From an uncultured Pseudomonadota bacterium (GTDB taxonomy: Bacteria > SAR324 > NAC60-12): DNA of 13,871 bases. This document shows, piece by piece, positions 1 through 13,871 of this stretch. The notes under the pieces were generated by a model. That model had not been told where the DNA came from, searched no databases, and was given only the letters and a program-made list of their open reading frames with translations. The DNA is taken from NCBI GenBank assembly GCA_913020725.1, contig CAJWCD010000101.1:1-13871 (forward strand), written 5' to 3'. Position 1 is the first letter of the stretch. Each line of letters starts with the position of its first letter. The position numbers were made by a program, and so were the translations under genes.

Positions 1-223
1 TGTCTCCTCTTCATAAGGGGAAAAACACCTTAACTCATTGTCTCAAAAATGTGGGTAGCGCCAGCCTCTCTTCATCAGACGGTGAGTTGCACTTACGAGT
101 TGAATCCGCGATCGAACACAGCAAACCCTTTCCTTTGCTAGCTGCGCTTGTGTTGCTATTCTATCTGCTGATCATTCGGCTCCGAAATTCTATTCTAAAA
201 ACTATCCTCCATTGAATACTCAC

Positions 224-1045
224 ATGGCGGACGAGACCCCCACTATCAAGTTCGCCGAGTGGCGTCCTATCGGGGTTTGTGACAACGGGCCTCCGAACCA
301 GCGCAAGGCGCAGCTTTTCAGCAAGCCGGATTTTGCCATCGTCACTGCACCGGGCGTCACCCGCGAGAACTGGCGACAGCATCCTGAGGTGCTGAAACTG
401 ATCCGGCGCTACGCGCAGGATGTCGCTAAACTCTCTGGAGAAGCGCAAGCGATGAAACGTCCGGAGATCGACACAATCCACCTTGTCGGCACGATTCTCG
501 GCCACACCCGCACTCCCACAGCAAATGCGGAATCGACGGAGGGCCGGGTGCAGTTGTTCGAGGTGAAGTTCAAGGATGCCCGAGCGGACAAGAACCCCCG
601 GAAACGGCGCTGGTGGTTCTGGCTGGTAGGTGCGATTTCCACGGTGTTGCTGTTGGGGTGGACGATTTCACAACTCAGCCTGCCGTTGAAATTGGGATCA
701 ACCACCGTCAAGCCGACGGTGGGAATGCGCCAAATCTGCATTCCGGGGCAAGGCGATTCCTTTGCGGAACTTCAGGCACTGCGGCGTCCAGTCTTGCAGT
801 TCCTGAAAACCCTGCCGAATTGGAGTTCGCTGTCGCAAATCCGCAGGGTCTGCGGCTCCGGATTCAGGAGTTTGCAGGATCAACAACAACGCACGGTACG
901 CTGCGTGGTGGCGGTCAACCGGGAAGTGCCAGAACTGAACCGATCCGGAAAAGCGGGATTCGCCAAGCTCCGGAGTTGTGCGGACAACCTCTGTCAATCT
1001 GGGTTTGCCGGGCTTGGGCCTTACTGCCCGCAGCTTGGGCGGTGA
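224..1045 (+). CDS. Hypothetical single-pass membrane protein with a Cys-rich C-terminal domain
   Basis: Longest ORF in the region (track 212..1045 from TTG; ATG at 224 preferred, MADETPTIK). Basic patch KNPRKRR is followed by hydrophobic WWFWLVGAISTVLLLGWTI (likely TM helix), then a domain with 6 Cys. No family recognised. Confidence 0.65.
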   Translation: MADETPTIKFAEWRPIGVCDNGPPNQRKAQLFSKPDFAIVTAPGVTRENWRQHPEVLKLIRRYAQDVAKLSGEAQAMKRPEIDTIHLVGTILGHTRTPTANAESTEGRVQLFEVKFKDARADKNPRKRRWWFWLVGAISTVLLLGWTISQLSLPLKLGSTTVKPTVGMRQICIPGQGDSFAELQALRRPVLQFLKTLPNWSSLSQIRRVCGSGFRSLQDQQQRTVRCVVAVNREVPELNRSGKAGFAKLRSCADNLCQSGFAGLGPYCPQLGR

Positions 1046-1052
1046 CGAACAA

Positions 1053-1979
1053 CTAAGCCGATTTCCGTAAACCAGCGGCAGCTTCCGGGATTTCCTTCAT
1101 TTCAACTCCAAGGCGTGCGAGGAAATCCGGGAGCGATTCCCGCACTTGCCGCACGTCGTTGTGGTCCTTGAAGACGATGCCGAGTGTTTCCGAGACAATT
1201 TCCGGGTCAAGGTGGTTCTGGTGCAGCACCACCAGCGAACGTCCCCAGTCAAGGGTTTCGGACACTCCCGGAACCTTTTCCAGTTTCTGCTGGCGGATCA
1301 GTTCCATGAAACGGCAGATTTGCTCGGCGAGGGTGGTGTCGATATTTGGAACCTTGTTGCGGACGATAGCGAGTTCCTTCTCGTAGTCCGGATAGTCGAT
1401 CCAGAGATAGAAACAGCGGCGGCGCACCGCATCGGAAAGCTCGCGGGTGCGGTTGCCCGTGAGAATGACATAGGGCGGATTGTCGGTCTTGATGCTGCCA
1501 ATCTCCGGAATCGTGATCTGCCACTCGGAGAGGATTTCGAGCAGGAAGGCCTCGAACTCCTCGTCGGCGCGGTCCAGTTCGTCAATCAACAAAACCGGTG
1601 CTTGCGGATGCGTGAGCGCTTGCAGCAAGGGGCGCTTGAGCAGAAACGCTTCACTGAAAATGTGCGACTCGCGTTCCTCTAGAGAACGAGTGCTGTGTTC
1701 GTCCATCTTGAGATGCAGCAACTGGCGCTGGTAGTTCCATTCGTAAAGCGCCATGTTCGCGTCCAAGCCCTCGTAGCACTGGAGCCGGATCAAATCCGTT
1801 TCAAGGGCCTGTGCCATCACCTTGGCGATTTCCGTTTTCCCAACCCCTGCCGGACCTTCGATCAAGAGCGGCTTGCGTAGCGTTATCGCCAGATAAACCG
1901 ATATGACGATGCTGCGGTCGGCGATATAGCCCTGCTGCTCCAAGAGGCGTTGGATGCGCTCAAGTTCAGTGTTTTGCAT
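1053..1979 (-). CDS. coxD: MoxR-family AAA+ ATPase, CoxD-like CO dehydrogenase maturation chaperone
   Basis: Walker A GPAGVGKT, LIRLQCYEGLD...ALYEWNY motif typical of CoxD-like MoxR proteins, Walker B LLIDELD followed by RADEEFEAFLLE, and AVRRRC. Last gene of the cox operon. Confidence 0.9.
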   Translation of the reverse strand: MQNTELERIQRLLEQQGYIADRSIVISVYLAITLRKPLLIEGPAGVGKTEIAKVMAQALETDLIRLQCYEGLDANMALYEWNYQRQLLHLKMDEHSTRSLEERESHIFSEAFLLKRPLLQALTHPQAPVLLIDELDRADEEFEAFLLEILSEWQITIPEIGSIKTDNPPYVILTGNRTRELSDAVRRRCFYLWIDYPDYEKELAIVRNKVPNIDTTLAEQICRFMELIRQQKLEKVPGVSETLDWGRSLVVLHQNHLDPEIVSETLGIVFKDHNDVRQVRESLPDFLARLGVEMKEIPEAAAGLRKSA

Positions 1980-1998: not shown

Positions 1999-2427
1999 TC
2001 AGGTTGTCGTTTCGGAGTTTTTCAGGCATCCCTCGAGCGCATTCCACGCGAGCAGGGCGCATTTGACACGGCTTTTGTGCTTACGGATTTCCAGTAACGG
2101 ACGCAGGCTTGCGATGGCATCGGACGACAATTCTCCAGAAGACATCGCTTCCCGGAACAGAGTGCCATACGTTGTGGCCTGAGACAACGAAACCCCTTGG
2201 ATCAGTTCTCCCATCATCGAAGCAGAAGCCACGCAGACCGAGCAGCCCCGCACTTGGGCACGGGCTTCCCGGATACAGTCGCCAGTAAGGGCGAGAGTCA
2301 GTTCTAACTCGTCCCCACAAAGAGGGTTGTACGCAGAGGCAGTGCGGTCGGCAGGCTCGACTTTTCCCGCAAAACGCGGGTGGCGCATGTGGTCGAGCAA
2401 GAGGTCTCGGTAAAGCGATTCGCTCAC
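1999..2427 (-). CDS. sufU: SufU/IscU-family Fe-S scaffold / sulfur-acceptor protein (SufU type)
   Basis: LYRDLLLDH..HPR N-terminus, NPLCGD, GCSVCVASASMM and RVKCALLAW. It has the extended spacer before the third Cys and lacks the IscU LPPVK motif, as in SufU. GTG start overlaps the sufS stop (GTGA, 2424-2427). Confidence 0.88.
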   Translation of the reverse strand: MSESLYRDLLLDHMRHPRFAGKVEPADRTASAYNPLCGDELELTLALTGDCIREARAQVRGCSVCVASASMMGELIQGVSLSQATTYGTLFREAMSSGELSSDAIASLRPLLEIRKHKSRVKCALLAWNALEGCLKNSETTT

Positions 2428-3668
2428 AGGAACAGCCTCCGGACCTCGGCGAGTGCGTCAACAGCGCGGTGGATTTCACTCACAGTGTTGTAAACGCCAA
2501 AGCTCATGCGCACCGTCGCGCCCACGCCCAACCGTTCGTGCAGCACTTGGGCGCAGTGGTGTCCGGCGCGAACGGCGATTCCAGATTCGTCCAACACCTG
2601 CGCCACATCGTGAGGATGCACCCCAGCAAGTGCAAACGACACCAGCCCCGTGCGCTCGGTGGCATGGTGTGGCCCGAAAACCGTCACCTCCGGTTCCTCC
2701 AACAAGCGTCCCAAGGCGAGGTCCGTGAGGGTTCGCTCATGTTCCCGGATTTCCGCAACCCCCCAGCGTTCGACATAATCCAGTGCGGCGTGCAGCCCCA
2801 CCGCCTCGGCGATGGGCGGGGTTCCGGCCTCGAACTTCGCAGGCACCTCGCCCCACGTCGAGTACTCGCGTTCCACCTTGGCGATCATCCCGCCGCCACC
2901 CTGCCACGGTTCCATTGCGTCAAGGTGTTTGGACTTTGCGTACAACACCCCAATTCCGGTGGGGCCGTAAATCTTGTGTCCGGAAAAGGCGAGGAAATCG
3001 CAATCGAGTTCCTGCACATCCACCGGAATCCGTCCCGCCGCTTGCGCCGCGTCCACCAACACCGGAACTCCGTGGTCGTGTGCCGTGGCGATGATCTCCC
3101 GAAGCGGATTGATGGTGCCAAGGACGTTGGAAACGAGCGTGATCGCCAACAATTTGGGCGACTGCGTCAGTTGGCTTGCAAGCTGGTCGAGGTCGAGGTG
3201 TCCGGCCGGAGTGACGGCAACGTAATCCAGCTTTGCTCCGGTTGCCTGTACGGCGAGTTGCCACGGCACGAGGTTGGAGTGATGCTCCATCTCGGTGAGC
3301 AGCAGGCGGTCTCCGGATTGCAAGCGGGGCCGCGCCCACGACTGTGCCACGAGGTTGATGGCTTCCGTCGTGCCTCGTGTGAAGATGATTTGCCGTGGGT
3401 CCGGAGCGTTGAGGAACTGAGTCACGCGCACTCGTGCTTGCTCGTAAAGCTCCGATGCTTGCTCGGAAAGCGCGTAAACACCGCGATGGATGTTGGCGTT
3501 GGAGGTTTCGTAAAAGCGAGTGAGCGTGTCGAGGACTGTCCGAGGTTTCTGGGTGGTCGCTGCGTTGTCGAGGTAAGCGAGTGGATGGCCATTACTGGTG
3601 CGAGCGAGGATCGGGAAGTCCTGCCGAAGCGATTTCGGAAGCGGGGTCATCGGAAAAGCAGCAGGCAT
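2424..3668 (-). CDS. sufS: Group II PLP-dependent cysteine desulfurase (SufS/CsdA family)
   Basis: YLDNAATTQKP, MEHHSN, PLP lysine motif SGHKIYGPTG, FEAGTP, and catalytic group II motif RAGHHCA (2550-2570). ATG overlaps the upstream stop (TGATG, 3666-3670). Confidence 0.95.
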   Translation of the reverse strand: MPAAFPMTPLPKSLRQDFPILARTSNGHPLAYLDNAATTQKPRTVLDTLTRFYETSNANIHRGVYALSEQASELYEQARVRVTQFLNAPDPRQIIFTRGTTEAINLVAQSWARPRLQSGDRLLLTEMEHHSNLVPWQLAVQATGAKLDYVAVTPAGHLDLDQLASQLTQSPKLLAITLVSNVLGTINPLREIIATAHDHGVPVLVDAAQAAGRIPVDVQELDCDFLAFSGHKIYGPTGIGVLYAKSKHLDAMEPWQGGGGMIAKVEREYSTWGEVPAKFEAGTPPIAEAVGLHAALDYVERWGVAEIREHERTLTDLALGRLLEEPEVTVFGPHHATERTGLVSFALAGVHPHDVAQVLDESGIAVRAGHHCAQVLHERLGVGATVRMSFGVYNTVSEIHRAVDALAEVRRLFL

Positions 3669-4474
3669 CAGCAGGTGGGCGCCTGCACCTGTTTGTTAGT
3701 CATCAACACCCCGCCGCTACCACCACGACGGCGCTGCACGATTTCGCTGATGACGCTCAGGGCGATTTCTTCCGGAGTCGTGCCGCCCAAGTCCAACCCG
3801 CACGGGGCGTGAACGCGCTGGAGTTCGCCCGCCTTCACTCCTTCGTCCAGCAGGTACTCGAACACGAGCCGCGAGCGCTTGGTGCTGGCGACGAGGCCGA
3901 TGTACGCGCTGTTGCCCTCCAACGCCTTTTTGATCGAATGCTGGTCGCCCTTGTGCTGCGTGACGACCACAACGTAGGAATTCGGACTCACCTCAAGCTG
4001 GCTGTAGTCCGGATCGGAAGTCACCAGCCGTTCGGCGTGGGGGAAGCTCTCGCGGGTTGCGCCTGCGTCGTTGACCGTGACCGAGAAATGCAGCATGTGT
4101 CCCAACTCCGCCAGCACCTCGGCGATGCGCCCGTGTCCGACGATCAGCAGCTCCGGACGCGGCAGGAACGGCTCGACATAGACCTCCATCGTCCCGCCGC
4201 AAGGCATCCCCACGCCCAGCACCTCGTCGTCGAGGTCGAGCGGCACGATGCAGGTCTGCCGATCCTTGAGGCATTCCAGCGCCGCTTCCCGCACCGCGCT
4301 TTCCGCGCAACCGCCGCCGACCCAACCGAACACCGTCTCGCCCTGCGCGTTGATGATGGACTTCGCCCCCGGTTTGGCGGAAACCGATCCCGTGATCTTG
4401 ATCACCGTCGCCACCGCAAACGACACTTCGAGGCGGTTCAACTCATTCAGCTTCTCAAAGAATTCGGCGGACAT
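3668..4474 (-). CDS. xdhC: XdhC/CoxF/CoxI-family molybdenum-cofactor chaperone (paralog 2)
   Basis: GSVSAKPGAK, GWVGGGCAE, MPCGGTMEVYVEP, Rossmann-like LLIVGHG, YIGLVAS, HAPCGLDLGGTTPEEIALSVISEI. ATG at 4474 (MSAEFFEK) is preferred to the track GTG at 4516, which lies inside a palindrome. Confidence 0.9.
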   Translation of the reverse strand: MSAEFFEKLNELNRLEVSFAVATVIKITGSVSAKPGAKSIINAQGETVFGWVGGGCAESAVREAALECLKDRQTCIVPLDLDDEVLGVGMPCGGTMEVYVEPFLPRPELLIVGHGRIAEVLAELGHMLHFSVTVNDAGATRESFPHAERLVTSDPDYSQLEVSPNSYVVVVTQHKGDQHSIKKALEGNSAYIGLVASTKRSRLVFEYLLDEGVKAGELQRVHAPCGLDLGGTTPEEIALSVISEIVQRRRGGSGGVLMTNKQVQAPTC

Positions 4475-4506: not shown

Positions 4507-4532
4507 GGGCAGACACGCAGGTCTGCCCCTAC
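4507..4532 (-). repeat. GTAG-type REP-like palindrome
   Basis: Minus strand reads GTAG-GGGCAGAC-CTGCGT-GTCTGCCC: a GTAG tetranucleotide followed by a perfect 8-bp GC-rich stem, the architecture of GTAG-family REP elements. Only one copy in this window. Confidence 0.65.
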
Positions 4533-5134
4533 ACACCCTGAGATCGGATTTGCCTGCCGTACTGCTCCGGCGTGTCAATGTCCCGCAGCACATGATCGGT
4601 GGCCATCTCCAGTTCCCGGACGTGTTCGGGGTGCTGCTTGATGAGTCCCCGGCAGCCTTCCAGCTTCTCGTGCGCAAGCAACAACTGCCGATACTCCGAC
4701 GAGAACAGCACCGGATTCCCCGGACATCCCTGATGCACCGGGCGTACAATGGCGTGGTCGTCCTCTACTCGTGCTTTCCGGAAGGCGTTTAACAAGTAAT
4801 TGTAGTCGCTTGGCTCCACAAAGGGCAAATCGGAAAGGCAGATCATGAACCCTTCCGACTGTGGGGAGGCCATCCGGACGCCCGCACGGATCGAGGTCGT
4901 CATGCCCTGTGCGAAATCCGGATTTTCCACGATCCGGAACGGACGATCCGGCAATGTCGCCCGCACTTGTTCGGCCTCGTGTCCAAGCACCACCACCACC
5001 TCGCCTGCATCCGAATCGCAGAGGGCGGTCACGACTTGTCCGAGCAGGGTGTTGTTGCGGAAGGGCAGGAGCAGCTTGTTCTGCTCTCCCATGCGCCGGG
5101 ATGCTCCGGCGGCGAGCAGGATCGCTGAGATCAC
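4529..5134 (-). CDS. mocA: Molybdenum cofactor cytidylyltransferase (MocA-like NTP transferase, makes MCD)
   Basis: ILLAAGASRRMG, NPDFAQGMTTSIRAG, LSDLP, GNPVLF and DIDTPE motifs, in an operon for an MCD-dependent enzyme. GTG start overlaps the upstream stop (GTGA, 5131-5134). Confidence 0.87.
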   Translation of the reverse strand: MISAILLAAGASRRMGEQNKLLLPFRNNTLLGQVVTALCDSDAGEVVVVLGHEAEQVRATLPDRPFRIVENPDFAQGMTTSIRAGVRMASPQSEGFMICLSDLPFVEPSDYNYLLNAFRKARVEDDHAIVRPVHQGCPGNPVLFSSEYRQLLLAHEKLEGCRGLIKQHPEHVRELEMATDHVLRDIDTPEQYGRQIRSQGV

Positions 5135-6096
5135 GGAATGCTGGTGAGGTAACGCTCCGGTTCTGTTTCAAAACGTGTTCGACACCGAGCACAACAAAAA
5201 TAAAAGACCGTCTCTCCATGTTTGGCCACATGCTTTGACGAGCCAACCACCACCGACATTCCGCAGACAGGATCAACCGTTTCTGTTAAGATCTTTGTCT
5301 CTGTTGGGGTATCGCCCGCTAAAATCCCAGATGTTGAGTTGCGGTGAAACTGTATGATTTCTGCGAGAATACTGACCGCAATCTCTCCGGGAGTTTTGGC
5401 TTGGAGGTCAAGCCCGGCGGGTGTACGCAGAGCATTCAAGCGGTTACTAGAAATGCCCTCACGCCTTAAATAATCCTTGAGTGCCTTTGCTTTTTTCTGA
5501 CTACCCACAAACGCGACATAGCTCACCTTCGTCTGCAAAGCTGCTTTCAGGGCAAGTTCATCATCTGCGCCTTGGGTGCTGACCAGCACAAAGCATGGAT
5601 CCGCAAGTGGAAGTTGGCTAAGGTCGTTTTCTGGAAACTTAAACTGGGCTCCTGCGAGTTCCACTCCTTCTGAAATCGCCACGCTGTAGCCGATTTCTTG
5701 CGCAAGTCGGGCAACGCTCTGGCCCACTGGTGAGTGACCTAAGATCACCACCAATGGATTCGGCAACACAGGCTCAATGTAGATGTCCAAGGTGCCTCCA
5801 CTGTGGCAGGTCATGGGATACTGCGCGAAATCACGAATGGGTTGTACCGCTCCGGATGGGGAGATTGCAACCAAGCGGGGTTCACCTTCTTGAAGTGCCT
5901 GAAGTGCTTCCTTGACCACCACCGGGTGGGTGCATCCGCCGCCAATCCAGCCGTGTATCGCACCGTCCTGACAGATGATCATCTTGTCTCCAGGCTTACT
6001 CGAAATTGGCTTTCCATGCCGAATTACGATCGCATGAGCATAAGCCTCGCGGCGCTCTCGTAGCATCAGAGACTGCTTCAGAAACTCGTCAATCAT
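5131..6096 (-). CDS. xdhC: XdhC/CoxF-family chaperone fused to a C-terminal YHS/TRASH metal-binding domain (paralog 1)
   Basis: SSKPGDK, GWIGGGC, MTCHSGGTLDIYIEP, YVAFVGS, TPAGLDLQAKTPGEIAVSILAEII; C-terminal DPVCGM...FYFCCARCRTRF..EPERY. ATG at 6096 (MIDEFLKQ) is preferred; the track start at 6204 overlaps coxL. Confidence 0.88.
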   Translation of the reverse strand: MIDEFLKQSLMLRERREAYAHAIVIRHGKPISSKPGDKMIICQDGAIHGWIGGGCTHPVVVKEALQALQEGEPRLVAISPSGAVQPIRDFAQYPMTCHSGGTLDIYIEPVLPNPLVVILGHSPVGQSVARLAQEIGYSVAISEGVELAGAQFKFPENDLSQLPLADPCFVLVSTQGADDELALKAALQTKVSYVAFVGSQKKAKALKDYLRREGISSNRLNALRTPAGLDLQAKTPGEIAVSILAEIIQFHRNSTSGILAGDTPTETKILTETVDPVCGMSVVVGSSKHVAKHGETVFYFCCARCRTRFETEPERYLTSIP

Positions 6097-6167: not shown

Positions 6168-8537
6168 TTAGGTCGCGAGACCCTTCTCCTGAAGAATCTG
6201 CCAAACTTTGAAGGGCGTGATGGGAATGTCAACATGCTTCACGCCGAGGTGTGAAAGTGCATCCACAACCGCATTCGCAATCGCAGGAGGAGCCCCAACT
6301 GTGGGAGATTCTGCAACACCTTTTGCTCCTAACGGATGGTGCGGAGAGGGTGTGATCGTGTGGCCTGTTTCCAAATGTGGAATCTCCACGGCAGTAGGAA
6401 CGAGGTAATCCATGAAGGTACCGTTGAGAATATTTCCGTCGTCGTCGTAGATCATCTCTTCATACAACGCCGGAGCAATACCCTGCGCAAGCCCACCGTG
6501 GATTTGGCCCTCAACAATCATCGGATTGATGATGTTCCCGCAGTCGTCAATCGCCATAAAACGCCGCACCTTCACTTGACCCGTTCCCTTGTCAATGTCC
6601 ACCACACAGATGTAGGAACCAAAAGGAAACGTCAGATTGGGCGGATCATAATAGTGCGTCGCTTCCAAGCCTGCCTCCATACCCTGCGGATGATTGGTGT
6701 AGGCCGCAAAGGCGATGTCCTGGATGGTTTTGGACTTTTCCGGACTTCCCTTCACCCAGAACTTTCCGGGTTCCCACTCCAAATCTTCCTCGTCCACTTC
6801 CAGTAAATGCGCTGCAATTTTGCGGGCTTTGTCGAGGATTTTGTAAGACGCCTTCGCAGCAGCAGCTCCCGCAGTTGGAGTACTGCGACTAGCGTAAGTG
6901 CCAAGACCGTAGGGTGCGGTGTCCGTGTCACCCTCCTCAACCTGAATGTGCAGTGCCGGAATGCCGAGTTGCTCTGCAATGATCTGGGCGTAGGTGGTCT
7001 CGTGTCCTTGTCCCTGTGACTTGGTGCCGAAGCGGGCGATGGCCTTACCTGTTGGGTGGATACGGATTTCACAACTGTCGAACATCTTGATGCCAAGGAT
7101 GTCAAAATCCTTTGACGGTCCTGCACCAACGATTTCGGTGAAGCTGCAAACGCCAATGCCCATCAACTCTCCACGCGCTCGTTTTTCAACCTGCTCTTTA
7201 CGCAGGTCGTCGTAGCCGATCCGCTCCAGCGCAAGTTCGAGTGCTGCGGGGTAGTTTCCGGAATCGTACTCCCAACCCAACGGTGAATTGTACGGGAACT
7301 GCTCCGGTTGGATGAAGTTCTTCATCCGGAGTTCTACCGGGTCCATCTTCAGTTCCTGCGCTAACACATCCGTGATGCGTTCCACGGCATGAACCGCCTC
7401 GGTCACCCGAAAGGAACAGCGGTAAGCCACTCCACCCGGAGGCTTGTTGGTGTAGACCGCATCCATTTCGGTGAAGGCATCCTGAAAATTGTAGGAACCT
7501 GTGCAGATCGAAAACAACCCTGCCGGATACTTTGACGGGTTTGCTGCCGCGTCCGTGTAGCCATAATCGGCCAACGTCTTGATCCGCAGTCCTTGCATCT
7601 TGCCTTCCTTCGTTGCGGCCATCTCCACGTCCATGTGGTAGTCGCGGGCGAAGGAATCGGCCTGCAAATTCTCCGATCGATCCTCAATCCACTTCACCGG
7701 CTTGCCGATCAGCACCGAGGCAGCAATCGCGATCACATATCCCGGATAGACTGGCACCTTGCCGCCGAAACCTCCGCCGATGTCCGGAGAGATGATGCGG
7801 ATTTTCTCTTCGGACAAACCGACGTGTCCGGCCACAAGCGCAAGCACCGTGCGGACCGCGTGTGGTGCCTGAGTCGTCATCCACACGGTCAGCTTGCCCT
7901 CGGCTTTATCGAAACTAGCAACGCAACCACAGGTTTCGATGGAGCAAACATGAATCCTCGGCAAGTACATCTTCTGCGAAACCACCACATCCGCATTCTC
8001 GAAAATCTCTGCAGTTGATTTGCGGTTGCCAGCTTCCCAATGCCAAATGTGGTTATCGGTCTTGCCCTCTTTGTCCGGACGCAGCAAAGGGGCGTCCTCA
8101 TCGAGGGCCTTGTGTGGATCAATCACGGGTTTCATCTGCTCGTACTCGACCGTAACCGCCTCCACACCATCAGCCGCCGTATAGCGATCCGTGGCGATCA
8201 CCGCCGCGACCTCCTGTGACTGATACATCACCGTGTCGGTCGGCAGCACCATCTGCGTGTCGGACATCAGCGTCGGCATCCAGTGCAGATTATACTGCTC
8301 CAAATCTTTGCCAGTGATCACCGCCAGCACTCCCGGCAGTTCCAGTGCCGCTTCGGAGTTGATACTCTTGATTTTTGCGTAGGCGTAGGGGCTGCGCACG
8401 ATGGCCATGTAGAGCATCCCCGGCAGGTTCACATCATCCGTGTACTTGCCTTGCCCCCGGATGAAACGGGCATCTTCCTTGCGCTTGAGGCTGTGCCCCA
8501 TGCCTCCGATTTCTTTCGATGTTTTGCACTGGATCAT
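6168..8537 (-). CDS. coxL: Aerobic carbon monoxide dehydrogenase large subunit, form I (Mo,Cu-CODH)
   Basis: Diagnostic form I motif AYRCSFR (7407-7427), plus GGGFGGK, QGQGHET, GTYASRS and GAKGVAESP. The true start ATG at 8537 overlaps the coxS stop (ATGA) and follows the SD AAGGAGG. The track start at 8726 is inside coxS. Confidence 0.97.
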
Positions 8538-9022
8538 GCGGCCTCCTTTTGCTGTTCGTTGAGCTTGTTTGCCGCGTACTGGATCGCCTTGATGATGTTG
8601 ACATATCCGGTGCAGCGGCACAGGTTTCCGGAAATGCCCCAGCGAATTTCCTCCTCCGTGGGATTTGGATTCTTCTCTAGCAACTCTTTGGCTCGCATGA
8701 TCATACCCGGTGTGCAGAACCCGCACTGGAGTCCATGCTCCTCGTGAAAACCCTCCTGCAACGGGTGCAGCGCATCCTGCTCCATGCCCTCGATAGTTTC
8801 TACCGCTTTGCCGTTTGCCTGAGCTGCGAACACGGTACAGGATTTGACAGAACGGCTATCGAGCAAAACGGTGCAAGCTCCGCAATTGGAAGTGTCACAA
8901 CCGATGTGGGTTCCTGTTTTTTGAAGATCGTCCCTGAGTAAATGGACTAGCAGCAATCGTGAATCCACCTCTTGAGTGACTGAATCTCCATTGAGTGTGA
9001 ATGAAATGGTGTGTTTCGACAT
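8534..9022 (-). CDS. coxS: CO dehydrogenase small (2x[2Fe-2S]) subunit
   Basis: [12 protein letters not shown]...KSC and QCGFCTPG...GNLCRCTGY motifs; SD GGAAGGAG upstream. Confidence 0.96.
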
Positions 9023-9024
9023 GG

Positions 9025-9900
9025 TTAACTCCTTCCCTGAGCATGGTCCACCGCACGGCGGAGGGCGCGTTTTATCAGTTCCCGGATCAAGGACCGCTTG
9101 TAGTCCGCCGATCCTCGCAAATCATCTCCGGGGTCAGCATCCTCAGAGGCAAGCTGTCCGGCTTGTGCGTAGAGTGCTTCATCCGGACGCTGGCCCCGCA
9201 AGGAATCTTCTGAACGCACGGCTCGAATGGGAACCGGCCCCACGTTCGTTAGGCCAAGACCGACTTGCTGGAAGGTGCCGTCCGCGCCCAAGCTCACTTG
9301 AGCCGCAACCGCCGCAACCGCGTAATCCCCTACCTTGCGCTCGATCTTGAGGTACGTACCACCACTGTTGGAAGGTGGAATCGGAATCTGGATCTCGGTG
9401 AGAATCTCCCCGTGTTCCAGCACGGTCGTGAAGAAATCCGGAAAGAAGTCATCAATCGGCACGGTGCGTTTTCCGCCCTGCCCAGTGATCTCGACCTGTG
9501 CCCGCAACGCGAGCATCGTCGCCGGGTGGTCGTTTGCCGGATCACCGTGCGCGAGGTTGCCGCCCAGGGTCGCCAGATTCCGGACCTGTGGGTCCGCGAT
9601 CATCTTGGCGGTATCCAGCAGGATCGGGTAGTTGGATTGAATCAACTCGGAATCCTCAAGCTCAACCTCTCTGGTCATTGCTCCAATCCGCAGAAATCCG
9701 CCGGATTCGCGAATGTAACTCAAGCCTGCGATGCCACTGATGTCAATGAGGTGGCTCGGTTCAGCAAATCTTAGACGCATTGCCGGGATCAGGCTGTGGC
9801 CCCCGGCCAGCACTTTGGCCTCAGAGCCGTGCTGATGCAGCAGGGCAATCGCCTCGCTCAGTGATTGCGGGGTCGCGTAGTCAAAAGATGGTGGAATCAT
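9025..9900 (-). CDS. coxM: CO dehydrogenase medium (FAD) subunit
   Basis: MIPPSFDY start, [45 protein letters not shown] upstream. Confidence 0.96.
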
Positions 9901-10029: not shown

Positions 10030-10265
10030 TTGATGGGAAAAGCCAAAACAAAAGACCCTATCGGTAATAGAACCACCTGTGCTACCCTGGGTAGGCACGA
10101 CCAACCATTTTGCCATAAGGAGCCGTTTCTGGGTATTTTTGTCTAACTTACTGATTTTTTAGAAAAACTCGCAAAACTCAGGTTAGATAAAAACTTGAAA
10201 GGTTCGATGTTACGCAATACATCTAACACATTGAAATAAACGTCCACTCCCATATTTCTCCCCTT

Positions 10266-10666: not shown

Positions 10667-12262
10667 ATGACCAGACTAAGTATCTTAATCTTAGCGGCAA
10701 GCATCGTAGTGTTGTCAACAACGCAAGTCCATGCCCAGAGCGGGACATTCCGCCAATCCCACGACGTTGGGTTTGGCGCGGAGGCTATAAACGTCGACCC
10801 CATTTCTTCGGGTCGCTTCTGGCAAGTCACTGAGAAGACGATGAGCCGCCTGGTTCGACCAGGCACGAGTGGAAAGCCGGAGTCGAATCTGGCGACGGAG
10901 TGGTCGGCAAACGAGACCGCAACCGAATGGACCTTCAAGTTGCGTGAAGGAGTCAAATTCCACGATGGATCCGACTTCGACGCGGATGACGTGGTTTATA
11001 CGTTGGAACGCGTCAAAGACCCCGAACTCGCTTCGCCGGCCGCGTCGGTCATCGCGATGGTAGACACGATAGAGGCCGTTGACCCGTTGACCGTCAAGAT
11101 GACGCTCAAGGCACCTTACGCGGATCTCCCGTTGCAGCTGATGGATTATCGTATTCGGATGATCCCGGAAGGTTCGGCGAACAAGCACCATAAGACGCTA
11201 CGCTCGGAGATCGACAAATGGCGCTCCGAAGGTCTCATCGATGCCGGGCTCGCCGATCGACTCCGAAAGCGATATGTAACCATCGAAACGACGGGGATCG
11301 GAACCGGGCCCTTTATTCAGGTAACGCTCGATCCCGGAGGAACGACCGTTCTGAAGGCGAATCCCGACTATTGGGAGGGGCCGCCGGGTGTCGAGACCGT
11401 TGAGATCATCGGCATTGCGGATACGCAAGCGCGCGTGCAAGCGTTGCTGAGTGGCCAGATCGACATGCTGGGCTATGGTGATCTGTCCGGACAACAGTTA
11501 CCGCTCTTCAAGGACAACCCGAAGTTCAAGGTGCATAGCGTGCCCACAGGCGATTGGCAGGGCATCGTCTTCCGAACCGACACCGAGCCTTTCACCGACG
11601 CCCGCGTCCGCAGGGCGCTGCGCATAGCAACCGATCGTCAGGCCCTCATCGACCTTGTTCTAGGCCCCGATGGCGGCGTCGTCTCCTGTGATCATCCGGT
11701 GTGGACGGGCGATCAATATCGCGCGCCGTTCGATTGCCCACCGCAGATCGATGAGGCCAAGCGGCTGCTCGCCGAAGCCGGTTATCCCGACGGCATCGAA
11801 ATCGACGTCACCACCAGTGATCTCAGAGCCACCTGGATCGATATGGTGCAGGTCTACCAGCAACAGGTCGCACAGGCCGGCATCAAAGTCAACATAGTGA
11901 AGGCCCCGGGGGACGGATATTGGTCGGAAGTCTGGATGAAGAAGCCAGTAGTGACCACTAGCTGGGGGCAGCGGCCCGCCGATCAGATTCTAAACGAAGA
12001 CTACCGCGGCGGCGCGACTTGGAACGAAACATACTGGAACCGTGCCGATTTCGACAAGCTGCTGGACCAGGCGCGGACGGAGCTCGACTTCGATAAACGT
12101 AAGGCTTTGTACCATAAGCTGCAAAGGATACTTTACGAGGAGGGCGGATCGTTCATCCCCTTCCACGTCAACCAGGCCGTTGCTACGACCGCCAGAGTTT
12201 CGGGCCTACAGGCGGTGTTTACAGACGCCGTCCGCTACCACCTGGTGCACGTAAGCGACTAG
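10667..12262 (+). CDS. ABC transporter solute-binding protein, family 5 (Opp/Dpp/Nik-like)
   Basis: SD AAAGGAG (10654-10660); Sec signal peptide ending VHA|Q; family-5 signature LATEWSAN...WTFKLREGVKFHDGSDFDADDV; GTGPF; DARVRRAL; AKRLLAEAGYPDG. Confidence 0.93.
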   Translation: MTRLSILILAASIVVLSTTQVHAQSGTFRQSHDVGFGAEAINVDPISSGRFWQVTEKTMSRLVRPGTSGKPESNLATEWSANETATEWTFKLREGVKFHDGSDFDADDVVYTLERVKDPELASPAASVIAMVDTIEAVDPLTVKMTLKAPYADLPLQLMDYRIRMIPEGSANKHHKTLRSEIDKWRSEGLIDAGLADRLRKRYVTIETTGIGTGPFIQVTLDPGGTTVLKANPDYWEGPPGVETVEIIGIADTQARVQALLSGQIDMLGYGDLSGQQLPLFKDNPKFKVHSVPTGDWQGIVFRTDTEPFTDARVRRALRIATDRQALIDLVLGPDGGVVSCDHPVWTGDQYRAPFDCPPQIDEAKRLLAEAGYPDGIEIDVTTSDLRATWIDMVQVYQQQVAQAGIKVNIVKAPGDGYWSEVWMKKPVVTTSWGQRPADQILNEDYRGGATWNETYWNRADFDKLLDQARTELDFDKRKALYHKLQRILYEEGGSFIPFHVNQAVATTARVSGLQAVFTDAVRYHLVHVSD

Positions 12263-12410
12263 GTGGAGGACCACGCTCAAGGACCGGGCACGTGACGTTC
12301 AGGTCCGATTTAAACCGGGTCAGGGCGGCATGAACCGCGCCCGGAAGGCTAAAGCGTGACTGTCTTTGGAACGCTTGGCGGGCTCGGGACATGGCTTTAC
12401 GGGGGGTGGA

Positions 12411-13331
12411 ATGAAAATCGTCAGCTACAATATTCGTTTCGGACTGGGACTCGACCAGCGATACGATCTTGGGCGCATCGCCGATACCGTGCGCGATGCC
12501 GACATCATCGGCTTGCAGGAGGTCGAACGCAATTGGAAGCGAAGCGGCATGAGTGATCAGCCGGACATTCTTGGCGGGTATTTGAAGGAGTTCTACTGGG
12601 TCTACTGTCCCGCGTTCGATATGGACGCCAGCGGACGCAACGTAGACGGGACGGTGTTCAATCGGCGGCGTCAATTTGGCCCCATGCTGTTGTCCCGTTG
12701 GCCGATTCGCGTGGCTCGTCTCATCTTGCTTCCAAAACTCGGCACGGTGGACCGTCTAAACATGGATACGGGAGGAATCGAGTGTGTTATCGACGCGCCT
12801 TCGGGTCCGCTACGGGTCTATTCCGTCCACCTCTCGGCCGTCTCGACCCGGGAACGGCTCATACAAATCGATCGATTGCTTGAATACCACCGTAGCGCTC
12901 AAGTGAGCGGCGGCGCCTGGACCGGTGTCGGAACAAGTGTCGATCCCATCGAGGCCAAGCATTTCGCCGATCAGGACTGGTCCAATGGTGAGGCGCCGCC
13001 GCCCATGCCCAAAGAAGCAATCATCATGGGCGATTTCAACAGCGTATCCGAGAGCGACGAATACGTGCGGATGGTCGGTGAAATCGATCTCAGCTACGGC
13101 CGGGTTGCGCATCTGGACGGCTTCGTCGATAGCTGGACGGTGGCAAACGACGGTTGCGATGATCCCATCACCTGGTGGCCCGACCCGCCCGAGCGTTCGC
13201 CCGGCCATGGCGTGAGGCTGGATTATTGTTTTGTCAGTCCTGACTTGGCGCACAAGATCAAGGGGGCATGGGTCGACAGTGCCCCCATAGGCTCCGATCA
13301 TCGCCCCTATTGGGTTGAACTGGATCTCTAG
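12411..13331 (+). CDS. Endonuclease/exonuclease/phosphatase (EEP) family metal-dependent hydrolase
   Basis: MKIVSYNI, GLQEV, SVHL, MGDFN, RLDY and GSDHRP motifs. ATG at 12411 follows a G-rich SD-like run and is preferred to the track TTG at 12366. No signal peptide. Confidence 0.92.
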   Translation: MKIVSYNIRFGLGLDQRYDLGRIADTVRDADIIGLQEVERNWKRSGMSDQPDILGGYLKEFYWVYCPAFDMDASGRNVDGTVFNRRRQFGPMLLSRWPIRVARLILLPKLGTVDRLNMDTGGIECVIDAPSGPLRVYSVHLSAVSTRERLIQIDRLLEYHRSAQVSGGAWTGVGTSVDPIEAKHFADQDWSNGEAPPPMPKEAIIMGDFNSVSESDEYVRMVGEIDLSYGRVAHLDGFVDSWTVANDGCDDPITWWPDPPERSPGHGVRLDYCFVSPDLAHKIKGAWVDSAPIGSDHRPYWVELDL

Positions 13332-13360
13332 ATCATTCTAAGCCATGAACAGGGGTCGAA

Positions 13361-13871
13361 ATGGTTAGGCTAATTGCCCGCAGGCTGGCACTCGGCGTTT
13401 TGACGATCTTGCTTGTCTCAGGCATTATCTTCGTGGGTGTTGAGGTGCTGCCCGGCGATGCCTGCACCGCCTATCTGGGGCGGATGGCCCAAGGAAAGAG
13501 GCTGGAGAATTGTCGCCGAGATTTTGGGCTTGAACGGCCTGCCCTGACACGCTACGCCGAATGGGCCCTCGGCGCAGTCCGAGGCGATTTCGGCGTCTCC
13601 CTCAAGCGCAAGACGCCAATCTCAGAAACCGTTGGCACGCGTTTCCGTAATACGATCATCCTCGGCGTTACCGCGTCGATAATAGGTATTCCACTCGCCA
13701 TCCTGCTTGGGATTATCGCGGCCCTATGGCGAGATCGCCTCCCCGATTTGTGGATATCCACCACAGCGATCTTCGCCATGACGATCCCGGAGTTTGTGAG
13801 CTCCACGGTTTTAATCTTGATTTTCAGCGTCTGGCTCGGATGGCTCCCCGGAATCGTAATTACTCGACCCG
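13361..13871 (+). CDS. ABC transporter permease, DppB/OppB-like (3' truncated by window edge)
   Basis: Not in the ORF track because it is open at the edge. Hand translation: MVRLIARRLALGVLTILLVSGIIFVGVEVLPGDAC...FGLERP...RY..W...AVRGDFGVSL...RFRNTIILG...IPEF...LILIFSVWLGWLP, typical of the OppB/DppB N-terminal half. Confidence 0.92.
   Translation, partial: MVRLIARRLALGVLTILLVSGIIFVGVEVLPGDACTAYLGRMAQGKRLENCRRDFGLERPALTRYAEWALGAVRGDFGVSLKRKTPISETVGTRFRNTIILGVTASIIGIPLAILLGIIAALWRDRLPDLWISTTAIFAMTIPEFVSSTVLILIFSVWLGWLPGIVITRP

Follow-up and report, generated by a model that had tools for sequence, protein, structure and literature searches.

A conserved block of Moco-chaperone and SufS-SufU genes in SAR324 bacteria is a probable source of sulfur for molybdenum enzymes in the xanthine oxidase family

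Introduction

The sulfur source for the Mo-S-Cu site of aerobic carbon monoxide dehydrogenase (CODH) has been stated to be unknown (PMC4240915). A review of 2026 gives XdhC-NifS4 alone for sulfuration of bacterial xanthine-oxidase-family enzymes, calling the detailed mechanism unknown (PMC13653126). In Rhodobacter capsulatus, the cysteine desulfurase NifS4 is proposed to act with XdhC and to sulfurate the molybdenum cofactor (Moco) before its insertion (PMC2997495, PMC13653126). We investigated a contig of an uncultured SAR324 bacterium (assembly GCA_913020725.1, contig CAJWCD010000101.1; genome 93.3% complete). In this entire 13.9 kb contig (13,871 nt; hereafter the window), genes for an XdhC-family chaperone (xdhC2), a cysteine desulfurase (sufS) and a sulfur acceptor (sufU) lie between mocA and a coxD-like gene, coxD2, in a form I CODH operon. 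We refer to mocA-xdhC2-sufS-sufU-coxD2 as the block. We propose, with a probability of about 0.6, that SufS and SufU give the sulfido ligand to the XdhC-bound cofactor for enzymes that belong to the xanthine oxidase family, form I CODH included.

Like the R. capsulatus pair, the block combines an XdhC-family chaperone and a cysteine desulfurase for a xanthine-oxidase-family enzyme, the tie here being genomic. Unlike NifS4, which is essential, shared and described as acting directly, the desulfurase here is a separate paralogue adjoining xdhC, beside a housekeeping IscS, and is accompanied by a zinc-type SufU carrier, by MocA, which makes molybdopterin cytosine dinucleotide (MCD), and by a MoxR ATPase. 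Desulfurases of group II need an acceptor (PMC13066941, PMC8918507). The proteins here retain every catalytic and zinc-swap residue of Bacillus subtilis SufS-SufU (PDB 5XT5), but unlike that pair they form clades with a signature of their own in an order with no SufB/D match (0/64 genomes). Of a SUF-like sufCDSUB system, SufS and SufU are present here and the SufBCD scaffold is not.

The coxMSL-DEFG-I cluster of Oligotropha (Afipia) carboxidovorans (PMC4240915; pHCG3) likewise encodes a form I CODH, a CoxF-type XdhC and a MoxR ATPase. Unlike the window, the pHCG3 record has no desulfurase or U-type gene within 12 kb, as an earlier reading of the window made from its letters (the sequence-only reading) had said of the desulfurase. 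XdhC2 is also neither CoxF nor CoxI, CoxD2 is not the coxL-linked CoxD, and coxE and coxG lie elsewhere in the genome studied here. Escherichia coli IscS-FdhD and eukaryotic ABA3 similarly unite desulfurase, persulfide carrier and cofactor binder in one relay; there the carrier is itself the cofactor binder (FdhD; the MOSC domain), whereas here these would be the unrelated SufU and XdhC2 (PMC13653126). The Enterococcus faecalis locus EF_2563-2570 has a desulfurase-like gene, a small carrier, and MocA-like and XdhC-related genes with a Mo-hydroxylase (PMC2276186). It differs in having SelD, YqeB/YqeC, a TIGR01977 lyase and a carrier that resembles SirA; five genomes tested here gave no YqeB (0/5), and our desulfurase scores as SufS. 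Full-text searches, with supplements and subscription papers outside their scope, found no paper joining coxL, SufS, SufU and carbon monoxide dehydrogenase and none joining XdhC, SufU and molybdenum cofactor. XdhC-desulfurase cofactor sulfuration with a U-type carrier is apparently undescribed in print.

Results

The block is conserved across the SAR324 order

Profile score (1247 bits on TIGR02416; cut-off 991), the AYRCSFR motif at residue 371 and the order coxM-S-L mark the predicted CoxL as the large subunit of a form I Mo,Cu-CODH. The sequence-only reading had described xdhC, sufS and sufU as joined by TGATG and GTGA overlaps inside this operon, and the junction letters agree (xdhC stop and sufS start, ...TGC TGATG CCT; sufS stop and sufU start, ...CT GTGA GC). 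A further GTGA overlap joins xdhC-YHS to mocA, and 19 nt separate sufU from coxD. The overlaps suggest, without demonstrating, translational coupling. The position of the trio between mocA and coxD was likewise correct, but this coxD belongs to a paralogue clade of its own: the 26 copies that follow sufU group together (support 0.95), apart from coxL-linked CoxD, including that of O. carboxidovorans. The spacer between mocA and xdhC2 is 54 nt in the window and carries differing inserts of about 600 nt in two genomes of the same genus (L051:7252-7863; L052:10579-11205). From their translations we take one insert to be like a REP-associated tyrosine transposase and the other like a decayed antitoxin-toxin pair.

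The linkage is not peculiar to this genome; had it been so, the sequence-only reading would have stood refuted by its own test. The block is conserved across the SAR324 order. Of the class's 30 best SufS loci, 29 have xdhC immediately 5' of sufS, and the 30th ends at a contig edge. Since 29/30 share the arrangement, it is not due to chance.

We sampled 64 genomes of the order and 88 of the class, counting a SufS hit at E<=1e-80. The large-subunit domain of the xanthine oxidase family (PF02738) was present in 56/64 genomes of the order. A SufS match was found in 46 of these 56 versus none of the 8 genomes without the domain (Fisher test, p about 1e-5, which is overstated since kin are not independent). 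IscS was present in all 8 genomes lacking such enzymes and MoaE in 7 of them; because both persist without SufS, SufS-SufU tracks neither Fe-S nor molybdopterin synthesis. Inspection of 44 of the 46 SufS matches placed 40 directly behind xdhC2 and 2 behind mocA; one ends at a contig edge and one, in G045, is an unrelated copy. All 5 tested genomes that have the enzyme family but no Mo-linked SufS gave only distant XdhC matches and no xdhC2. The G045 copy (L040:8562-10213) forms, with a sufU, a pair of a different lineage; no sufBCD and no Mo-accessory genes adjoin it.

The prediction that cox-linked SufS and SufU would form clades of their own held. In a tree of 70 SufS sequences, 49 with Mo-accessory neighbours and one at a contig end (L019, labelled 'other' in the trees) formed a clade with support 0.976. 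The 15 sufBCD-linked copies fell outside it, including copies from the same class. IQ-TREE analysis of 46 SufS sequences again placed the Mo-linked copies together (26/26; SH-aLRT 98.9).

SufS-SufU is a predicted persulfide relay separate from housekeeping Fe-S assembly

SufS scored 566 bits on TIGR01979 (cut-off 475) and retains the pyridoxal phosphate (PLP) lysine, Lys232, the catalytic Cys372 and the SufU-pairing His351 in alignment to B. subtilis SufS (5XT5). SufU scored 118.5 bits on TIGR01994 (cut-off 92.5) and retains, in alignment to B. subtilis SufU, the zinc set Cys37, Asp39, Cys62 and Cys123 together with Arg120. These five residues are invariant in 36/36 SufU sequences (alignment A3), and the B. 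subtilis residue set for the ligand swap is described in PMC8918507. With catalytic and zinc residues kept, the pair looks like an intact persulfide relay. SufU also has a Lys before its third Cys, and motif comparison gave the lineage a signature unlike that of sufBCD-linked SufU.

As the sequence-only reading had anticipated, the genome has a separate housekeeping locus, an iscR-iscS-iscU-hscB-hscA operon on contig C33 (IscS scored by profile; the names iscR and hscBA taken from translations). This also disposes of the objection, raised in the same reading, that sufS and sufU might be the only such copies with no other Fe-S system. The claimed lack of a sufB or sufD partner was borne out: the SufB/SufD family had no match in the window genome at its 93.3% completeness and was present in 14/14 control genomes. 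Across the samples it had no match in the order (0/64) and 7 in the class (7/88), all seven in one other family. SufE had no match in the window genome and was found in 0/5 tested genomes; IscS was present in 58/64 genomes of the order. Because a separate isc operon is present and SufB/D is not, SufS-SufU is not the housekeeping Fe-S system.

XdhC2 differs from the XdhC protein that travels with CODH

XdhC2 forms a subfamily apart from CoxF and CoxI in our tree and scores under the cut-offs of TIGR02964 and NF045664. Cys56 and Cys92 are invariant (alignment A2), and the structural model (pLDDT 86) has XdhC-like 2WE7/2WE8 as its best fold match. Complex prediction of XdhC2 with SufU, using alignments, scored 0.01, which we count neither for nor against an interaction. 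Separately, an XdhC2 with a duplicated Rossmann domain (~450 aa) lies directly upstream of sufS at L048:10611-11978 and at seven other loci of family f2. An in-frame MocA-SufS fusion in G041 (L039:9174-11003, minus strand) was a singleton among the 120 best listed matches and was not used; its joint lies at a run of A, so that it may be an assembly error.

The second XdhC protein of the window, XdhC-YHS, groups with O. carboxidovorans CoxF (support 0.996) and travels with form I coxMSL rather than with the SufS block. It remains beside coxL in G020, G021 and G035, where the SufS block sits elsewhere, and was mostly deleted with coxSL in G062.

The block is not confined to genomes with form I CODH

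The proposal that the relay is dedicated to form I CODH did not survive comparison across genomes. We inspected 43 genomes that carry the block; a form I coxL match is present in 23 of them and absent from 20, 6 of the latter being at least 90% complete. In the 23, the block shares a contig with coxL in 16 and occupies a separate locus in 4; contig breaks leave 3 unplaced. A form I coxL match occurs in 26 genomes of the order (22 over the cut-off, 4 partial), and every one of them has SufS, in one case as a partial copy at a contig end. In genus g2 the genes run coxG-mocA-xdhC2-sufS-sufU-coxD2 between thyX-upp and tpiA; in G035 this places them 470 kb from coxL. In G058, G052 and G053 the block is followed by a form II-like coxSLM (AYRGAGR), and G039, a single-contig 93% genome, has the block without a form I match. 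The window genome itself has 10 PF02738 matches, a form II-like enzyme on contig C37 and one mocA (a single tblastn match at E<=1e-4).

G062, from the genus of the window, illustrates loss of the CODH genes. There the residue at about position 248 of coxM is fused to residue 178 of xdhC-YHS (L052:9004-9990), coxS and coxL are gone and the coxM remnant carries a frameshift, yet all five genes of the block are intact, with 82-93% identity; an assembly error is possible. Three genome pairs lacking form I coxL matches gave dN/dS values of 0.03-0.17; the value for G062 includes the time before the deletion and is no evidence of selection afterwards.

The accompanying suggestion of a self-contained Mo/S/Cu maturation pathway also found no support. 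Because coxE and coxG lie on other contigs of the window genome (C8 and C19), outside the operon, the operon is not self-contained. A YHS-bearing XdhC was not found in 3/3 tested form I genomes of genus g11 (G052, G056, G058), where the best match to XdhC-YHS is XdhC2 itself (3/3); the YHS protein is therefore no constant component.

The block probably originated within a form I cox operon, since both families of the order and the acidobacterial loci described below place xdhC2 there and all 26 form I genomes have SufS (one partial). It was probably retained when the CODH genes moved or vanished because other Mo-hydroxylases need it.

U-type genes accompany Mo-accessory genes independently of sufS

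In five genomes sufS has no sufU next to it, and all five carry a SufU of another lineage elsewhere. The idea that SufU is optional in the block was therefore dropped. These sufU genes adjoin coxG (4), a generic xdhC (3) or coxD (1). Conversely, a planctomycete locus and L203 have xdhC2-sufU without sufS alongside.

We scanned metagenomes with the XdhC2 alignment and examined the best 80 of 568 confirmed matches. Among these 80 loci, 13 have sufS, 10 have sufU and 41 have an IscU-like gene, which is nowhere paired with sufS and heads coxM in 24 of the 32 loci with room for it. The IscU-like protein is sister to IscU (support 0.914) and has neither the first cluster Cys nor the His that precedes the last Cys (alignment A4, which left out one U-like row with a stop in its reference); for this assignment we assume the IscU ligand numbering. 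Searched alone, the gene was found in 5/121 genomes of an Acidobacteriaceae sample, beside xdhC2 in all five and together with form I coxL in three. A U-type gene is thus tied to Mo maturation independently of sufS.

Two features of these loci stand apart from that result. The acidobacterial IscU paralogue (L095:9596-9967, minus strand; L224:1501-1857, plus strand; 41/80 loci, L126-L205) has two extra conserved Cys residues. In Acidobacteriaceae-type loci it is divergent from xdhC2, on which mocA and a gene for an XdhC Rossmann domain standing alone are convergent.

Discussion

Taken together, the block is conserved, broader than CODH and patchy outside one order. Because relatives keep it after losing CODH, it probably supplies sulfur to the whole Mo-enzyme family. 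We propose that it is a maturation block that places the terminal sulfido ligand on the MCD of xanthine-oxidase-family enzymes. MocA, assigned by family and with its activity taken from known biochemistry, would make MCD. SufS would take sulfur from cysteine as a persulfide on Cys372 and pass it to Cys37 of zinc-bound SufU through a ligand swap by His351; the residues are present and the chemistry is that of B. subtilis. With SufBCD absent from the genome, SufU would hand the sulfur to the cofactor held on XdhC2, which would then load the cofactor, once sulfurated, into apo large subunits; the remodelling ATPase would be CoxD2, together with CoxE in genomes that have it there. Provision of CODH copper would be a separate job, probably that of the CoxF-type XdhC-YHS.

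Several observations weigh against this proposal. All of the evidence is genomic, and the role of XdhC2 as sulfur acceptor is the putative step. Every Mo-linked SufS sequence comes from one order, so that clade and profile are not independent observations, and the outgroup of the SufS tree is small. Every client carries two [2Fe-2S] clusters, and the profile alone therefore cannot separate Mo=S from Fe-S supply. Ten of the 56 genomes with such enzymes lack a full SufS match; 5 of these have a completeness of 88% or more, and in one of the five a partial copy sits at a contig end. Among plasmid form I clusters at >=56% identity (19 listed), none of the 5 opened had an annotated desulfurase or U-type gene within 12 kb. 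The block is thus not required by every owner of these enzymes and is dispensable in general. A desulfurase in cis is not generally needed either, as O. carboxidovorans coxMSLDEFG alone let Ralstonia eutropha oxidise CO (PMC6011924). The best plasmid SufS matches opened (10 of 25 listed) were sufBCD-linked or unrelated to cox genes, and we did not count a desulfurase-like neighbour at L100 (27% identity, opposite strand). Among 201 and 151 sampled genomes from two other phyla, XdhC2 was found only in the seed genome, and 11 of 47 informative non-SufS xdhC2 loci have no U-type gene upstream. Finally, the available portions of PMC2997495 and PMC13653126 have R. capsulatus NifS4 acting on XdhC and describe no carrier, and in O. 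carboxidovorans sulfuration is reported to take place on cofactor already in the folded apo-enzyme and to need CoxD (PMC4240915). The latter conflicts, for CODH, with sulfur transfer on XdhC2 ahead of insertion.

In the main alternative the sulfur source is the same, but SufU would deliver sulfur to the Mo site of the folded apo-enzyme, opened by CoxD2-CoxE, either as a first sulfuration or as repair of a desulfo form, with XdhC2 inserting only unsulfurated cofactor. CoxD2, which follows sufU in family f1, forms its own clade and is kept without CODH; coxE follows coxD2 in G063, G046, G058 and G052; and the O. carboxidovorans work places CODH sulfuration at just this stage, with CoxD (PMC4240915). 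We nevertheless regard this arrangement as unlikely, as coxD follows neither sufU in 8 loci of family f2 nor sufS in G038, G039 and G044, and xdhC2 is the gene found most constantly beside sufS or a U-type gene. Somewhat less probable again is that SufS-SufU serves CoxS-type small subunits, as a sulfur source dedicated to their two [2Fe-2S] clusters. The phyletic profile fits, every client having both clusters, and B. subtilis NifS-NadA provides a precedent for a desulfurase dedicated to one Fe-S client (PMC13066941). However, a full isc operon with hscBA exists and no scaffold partner accompanies the pair; SufU retains the Cys-Asp-Cys-Cys zinc set and the Lys preceding the third Cys; two cluster ligands are gone from the acidobacterial U-type partner; and where the genes separate, the block goes with mocA and xdhC2, not with coxS.

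Service to the Mo-S-Cu bridge of form I CODH alone, the dedicated role first suggested for the relay, would explain why 26/26 form I genomes have a SufS match (one partial at a contig end), with 16 of the 23 inspected on the same contig. It would also suit the three g11 genomes in which the best XdhC match is XdhC2, with no CoxF-type copy found, and the acidobacterial U-type gene that usually heads form I coxMSL among the best 80 of 568 loci. Exclusivity is already contradicted, however: 20/43 block genomes, G039 included, have no form I match and purifying selection persists there; G062 deleted coxSL and kept the block; and 2 of the 5 acidobacterial genomes with U-like gene and xdhC2 lack form I coxL. 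Incompleteness of metagenome-assembled genomes may hide some coxL genes, but not plausibly all, and we consider this role the most improbable of those discussed. Only slightly more credible, and still very unlikely, is that the genes serve to insert selenium, or belong to an unrelated sulfur pathway and are kept here by an inherited order of genes. Selenocysteine, too, is cleaved by SufS enzymes, and selD is present in 4/5 tested genomes. A desulfurase-like gene occurs in selenium-dependent Mo-hydroxylase loci (PMC2276186). Against this, the YqeB marker (TIGR03309) was found in 0/5 tested genomes, the window genome included, and G039 has the block but no selD match; passive synteny fits poorly with the co-loss of SufS with xdhC2 and the enzyme family, and with the repeated placement of different U-type lineages beside Mo-accessory genes. 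As a separate observation, selD of the window genome (G000:C93:489-1412) has one in-frame TGA, probably encoding selenocysteine, as does the gene in 3/4 relatives tested.

Tentatively, and with some doubt, U-type proteins might be persulfide carriers for the Mo sulfido ligand, a third job beside those of Fe-S scaffold and SufB donor, recruited several times. XdhC2 would then be a subfamily specialised to take their sulfur, and, in these lineages, the block would be the sulfur donor so far missing for aerobic CODH. The candidate recruitments, equally tentative, would be the SufU of the SAR324 block, the SufU lineage beside coxG and xdhC, the planctomycete SufU behind xdhC2 and the acidobacterial IscU paralogue.

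Desulfurase, carrier, chaperone and MocA stand together here within 3 kb. Genetic work on NifS4 is blocked by its being essential; a 3 kb block beside a separate housekeeping system means that the sulfuration step could be rebuilt from few proteins and cleanly deleted in a surrogate host. The block may also help heterologous production of fully sulfurated CODH and related enzymes. Its lineage has been listed among the dominant marine potential CO oxidisers (PMC13203968).

Other features of the window

The features of the window are listed in Table 1.

Table 1. Predicted genes of the window, with the matches on which their names rest.
Feature	Position	Strand	Basis
coxM, FAD subunit	9025..9900	-	PF00941 + PF03450
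coxS, 2x[2Fe-2S] subunit	8534..9022	-	PF00111 + PF01799
coxL, predicted form I Mo,Cu-CODH large subunit	6168..8537	-	TIGR02416; AYRCSFR
xdhC-YHS, CoxF-type XdhC paralogue	5131..6096	-	PF02625+PF13478+PF04945
mocA, Moco cytidylyltransferase (makes MCD)	4529..5134	-	TIGR03310, 178 bits, just below cut-off 186
xdhC2, XdhC-family Moco chaperone	3668..4474	-	PF02625+PF13478
sufS, group II cysteine desulfurase	2424..3668	-	TIGR01979
sufU, zinc-type sulfur acceptor	1999..2427	-	TIGR01994
coxD2, CoxD-like MoxR AAA+ ATPase, block-specific paralogue	1053..1979	-	AAA_5
ORF, 277 aa, convergent on coxD2	212-1045	+	no Pfam or NCBIfam match
Peptide-type ABC substrate-binding protein, endonuclease/phosphatase-like ORF, permease start; divergent from cox operon	10667-13870	+	translations only

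A scan for promoters and terminators gave 4 and 7 sites, versus 3.5 and 9.6 in shuffled sequences. Part of the window was present in 20 of 23 listed RNA runs, and RNA contigs from 4 runs span coxMSL, with further pieces over mocA/xdhC2, sufS/sufU and sufU/coxD; these contigs reveal neither strand nor a single transcript, and lacking a silent control we counted them as weak evidence.

An N-terminus resembling that of the 277-aa open reading frame (ORF) was seen by eye near sufS in G041 and G042 (cluster c61). A 47-nt element at window positions 64-110 has about 40 blastn matches across the genome, many of them at contig ends, and is a dispersed repeat. Upstream of coxM, elements at 10053-10105 and 10206-10237 have about ten and three further matches in the genome, respectively. 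Many loose ends of RNA contigs fall in these two elements, which may be repeats or a regulatory leader.

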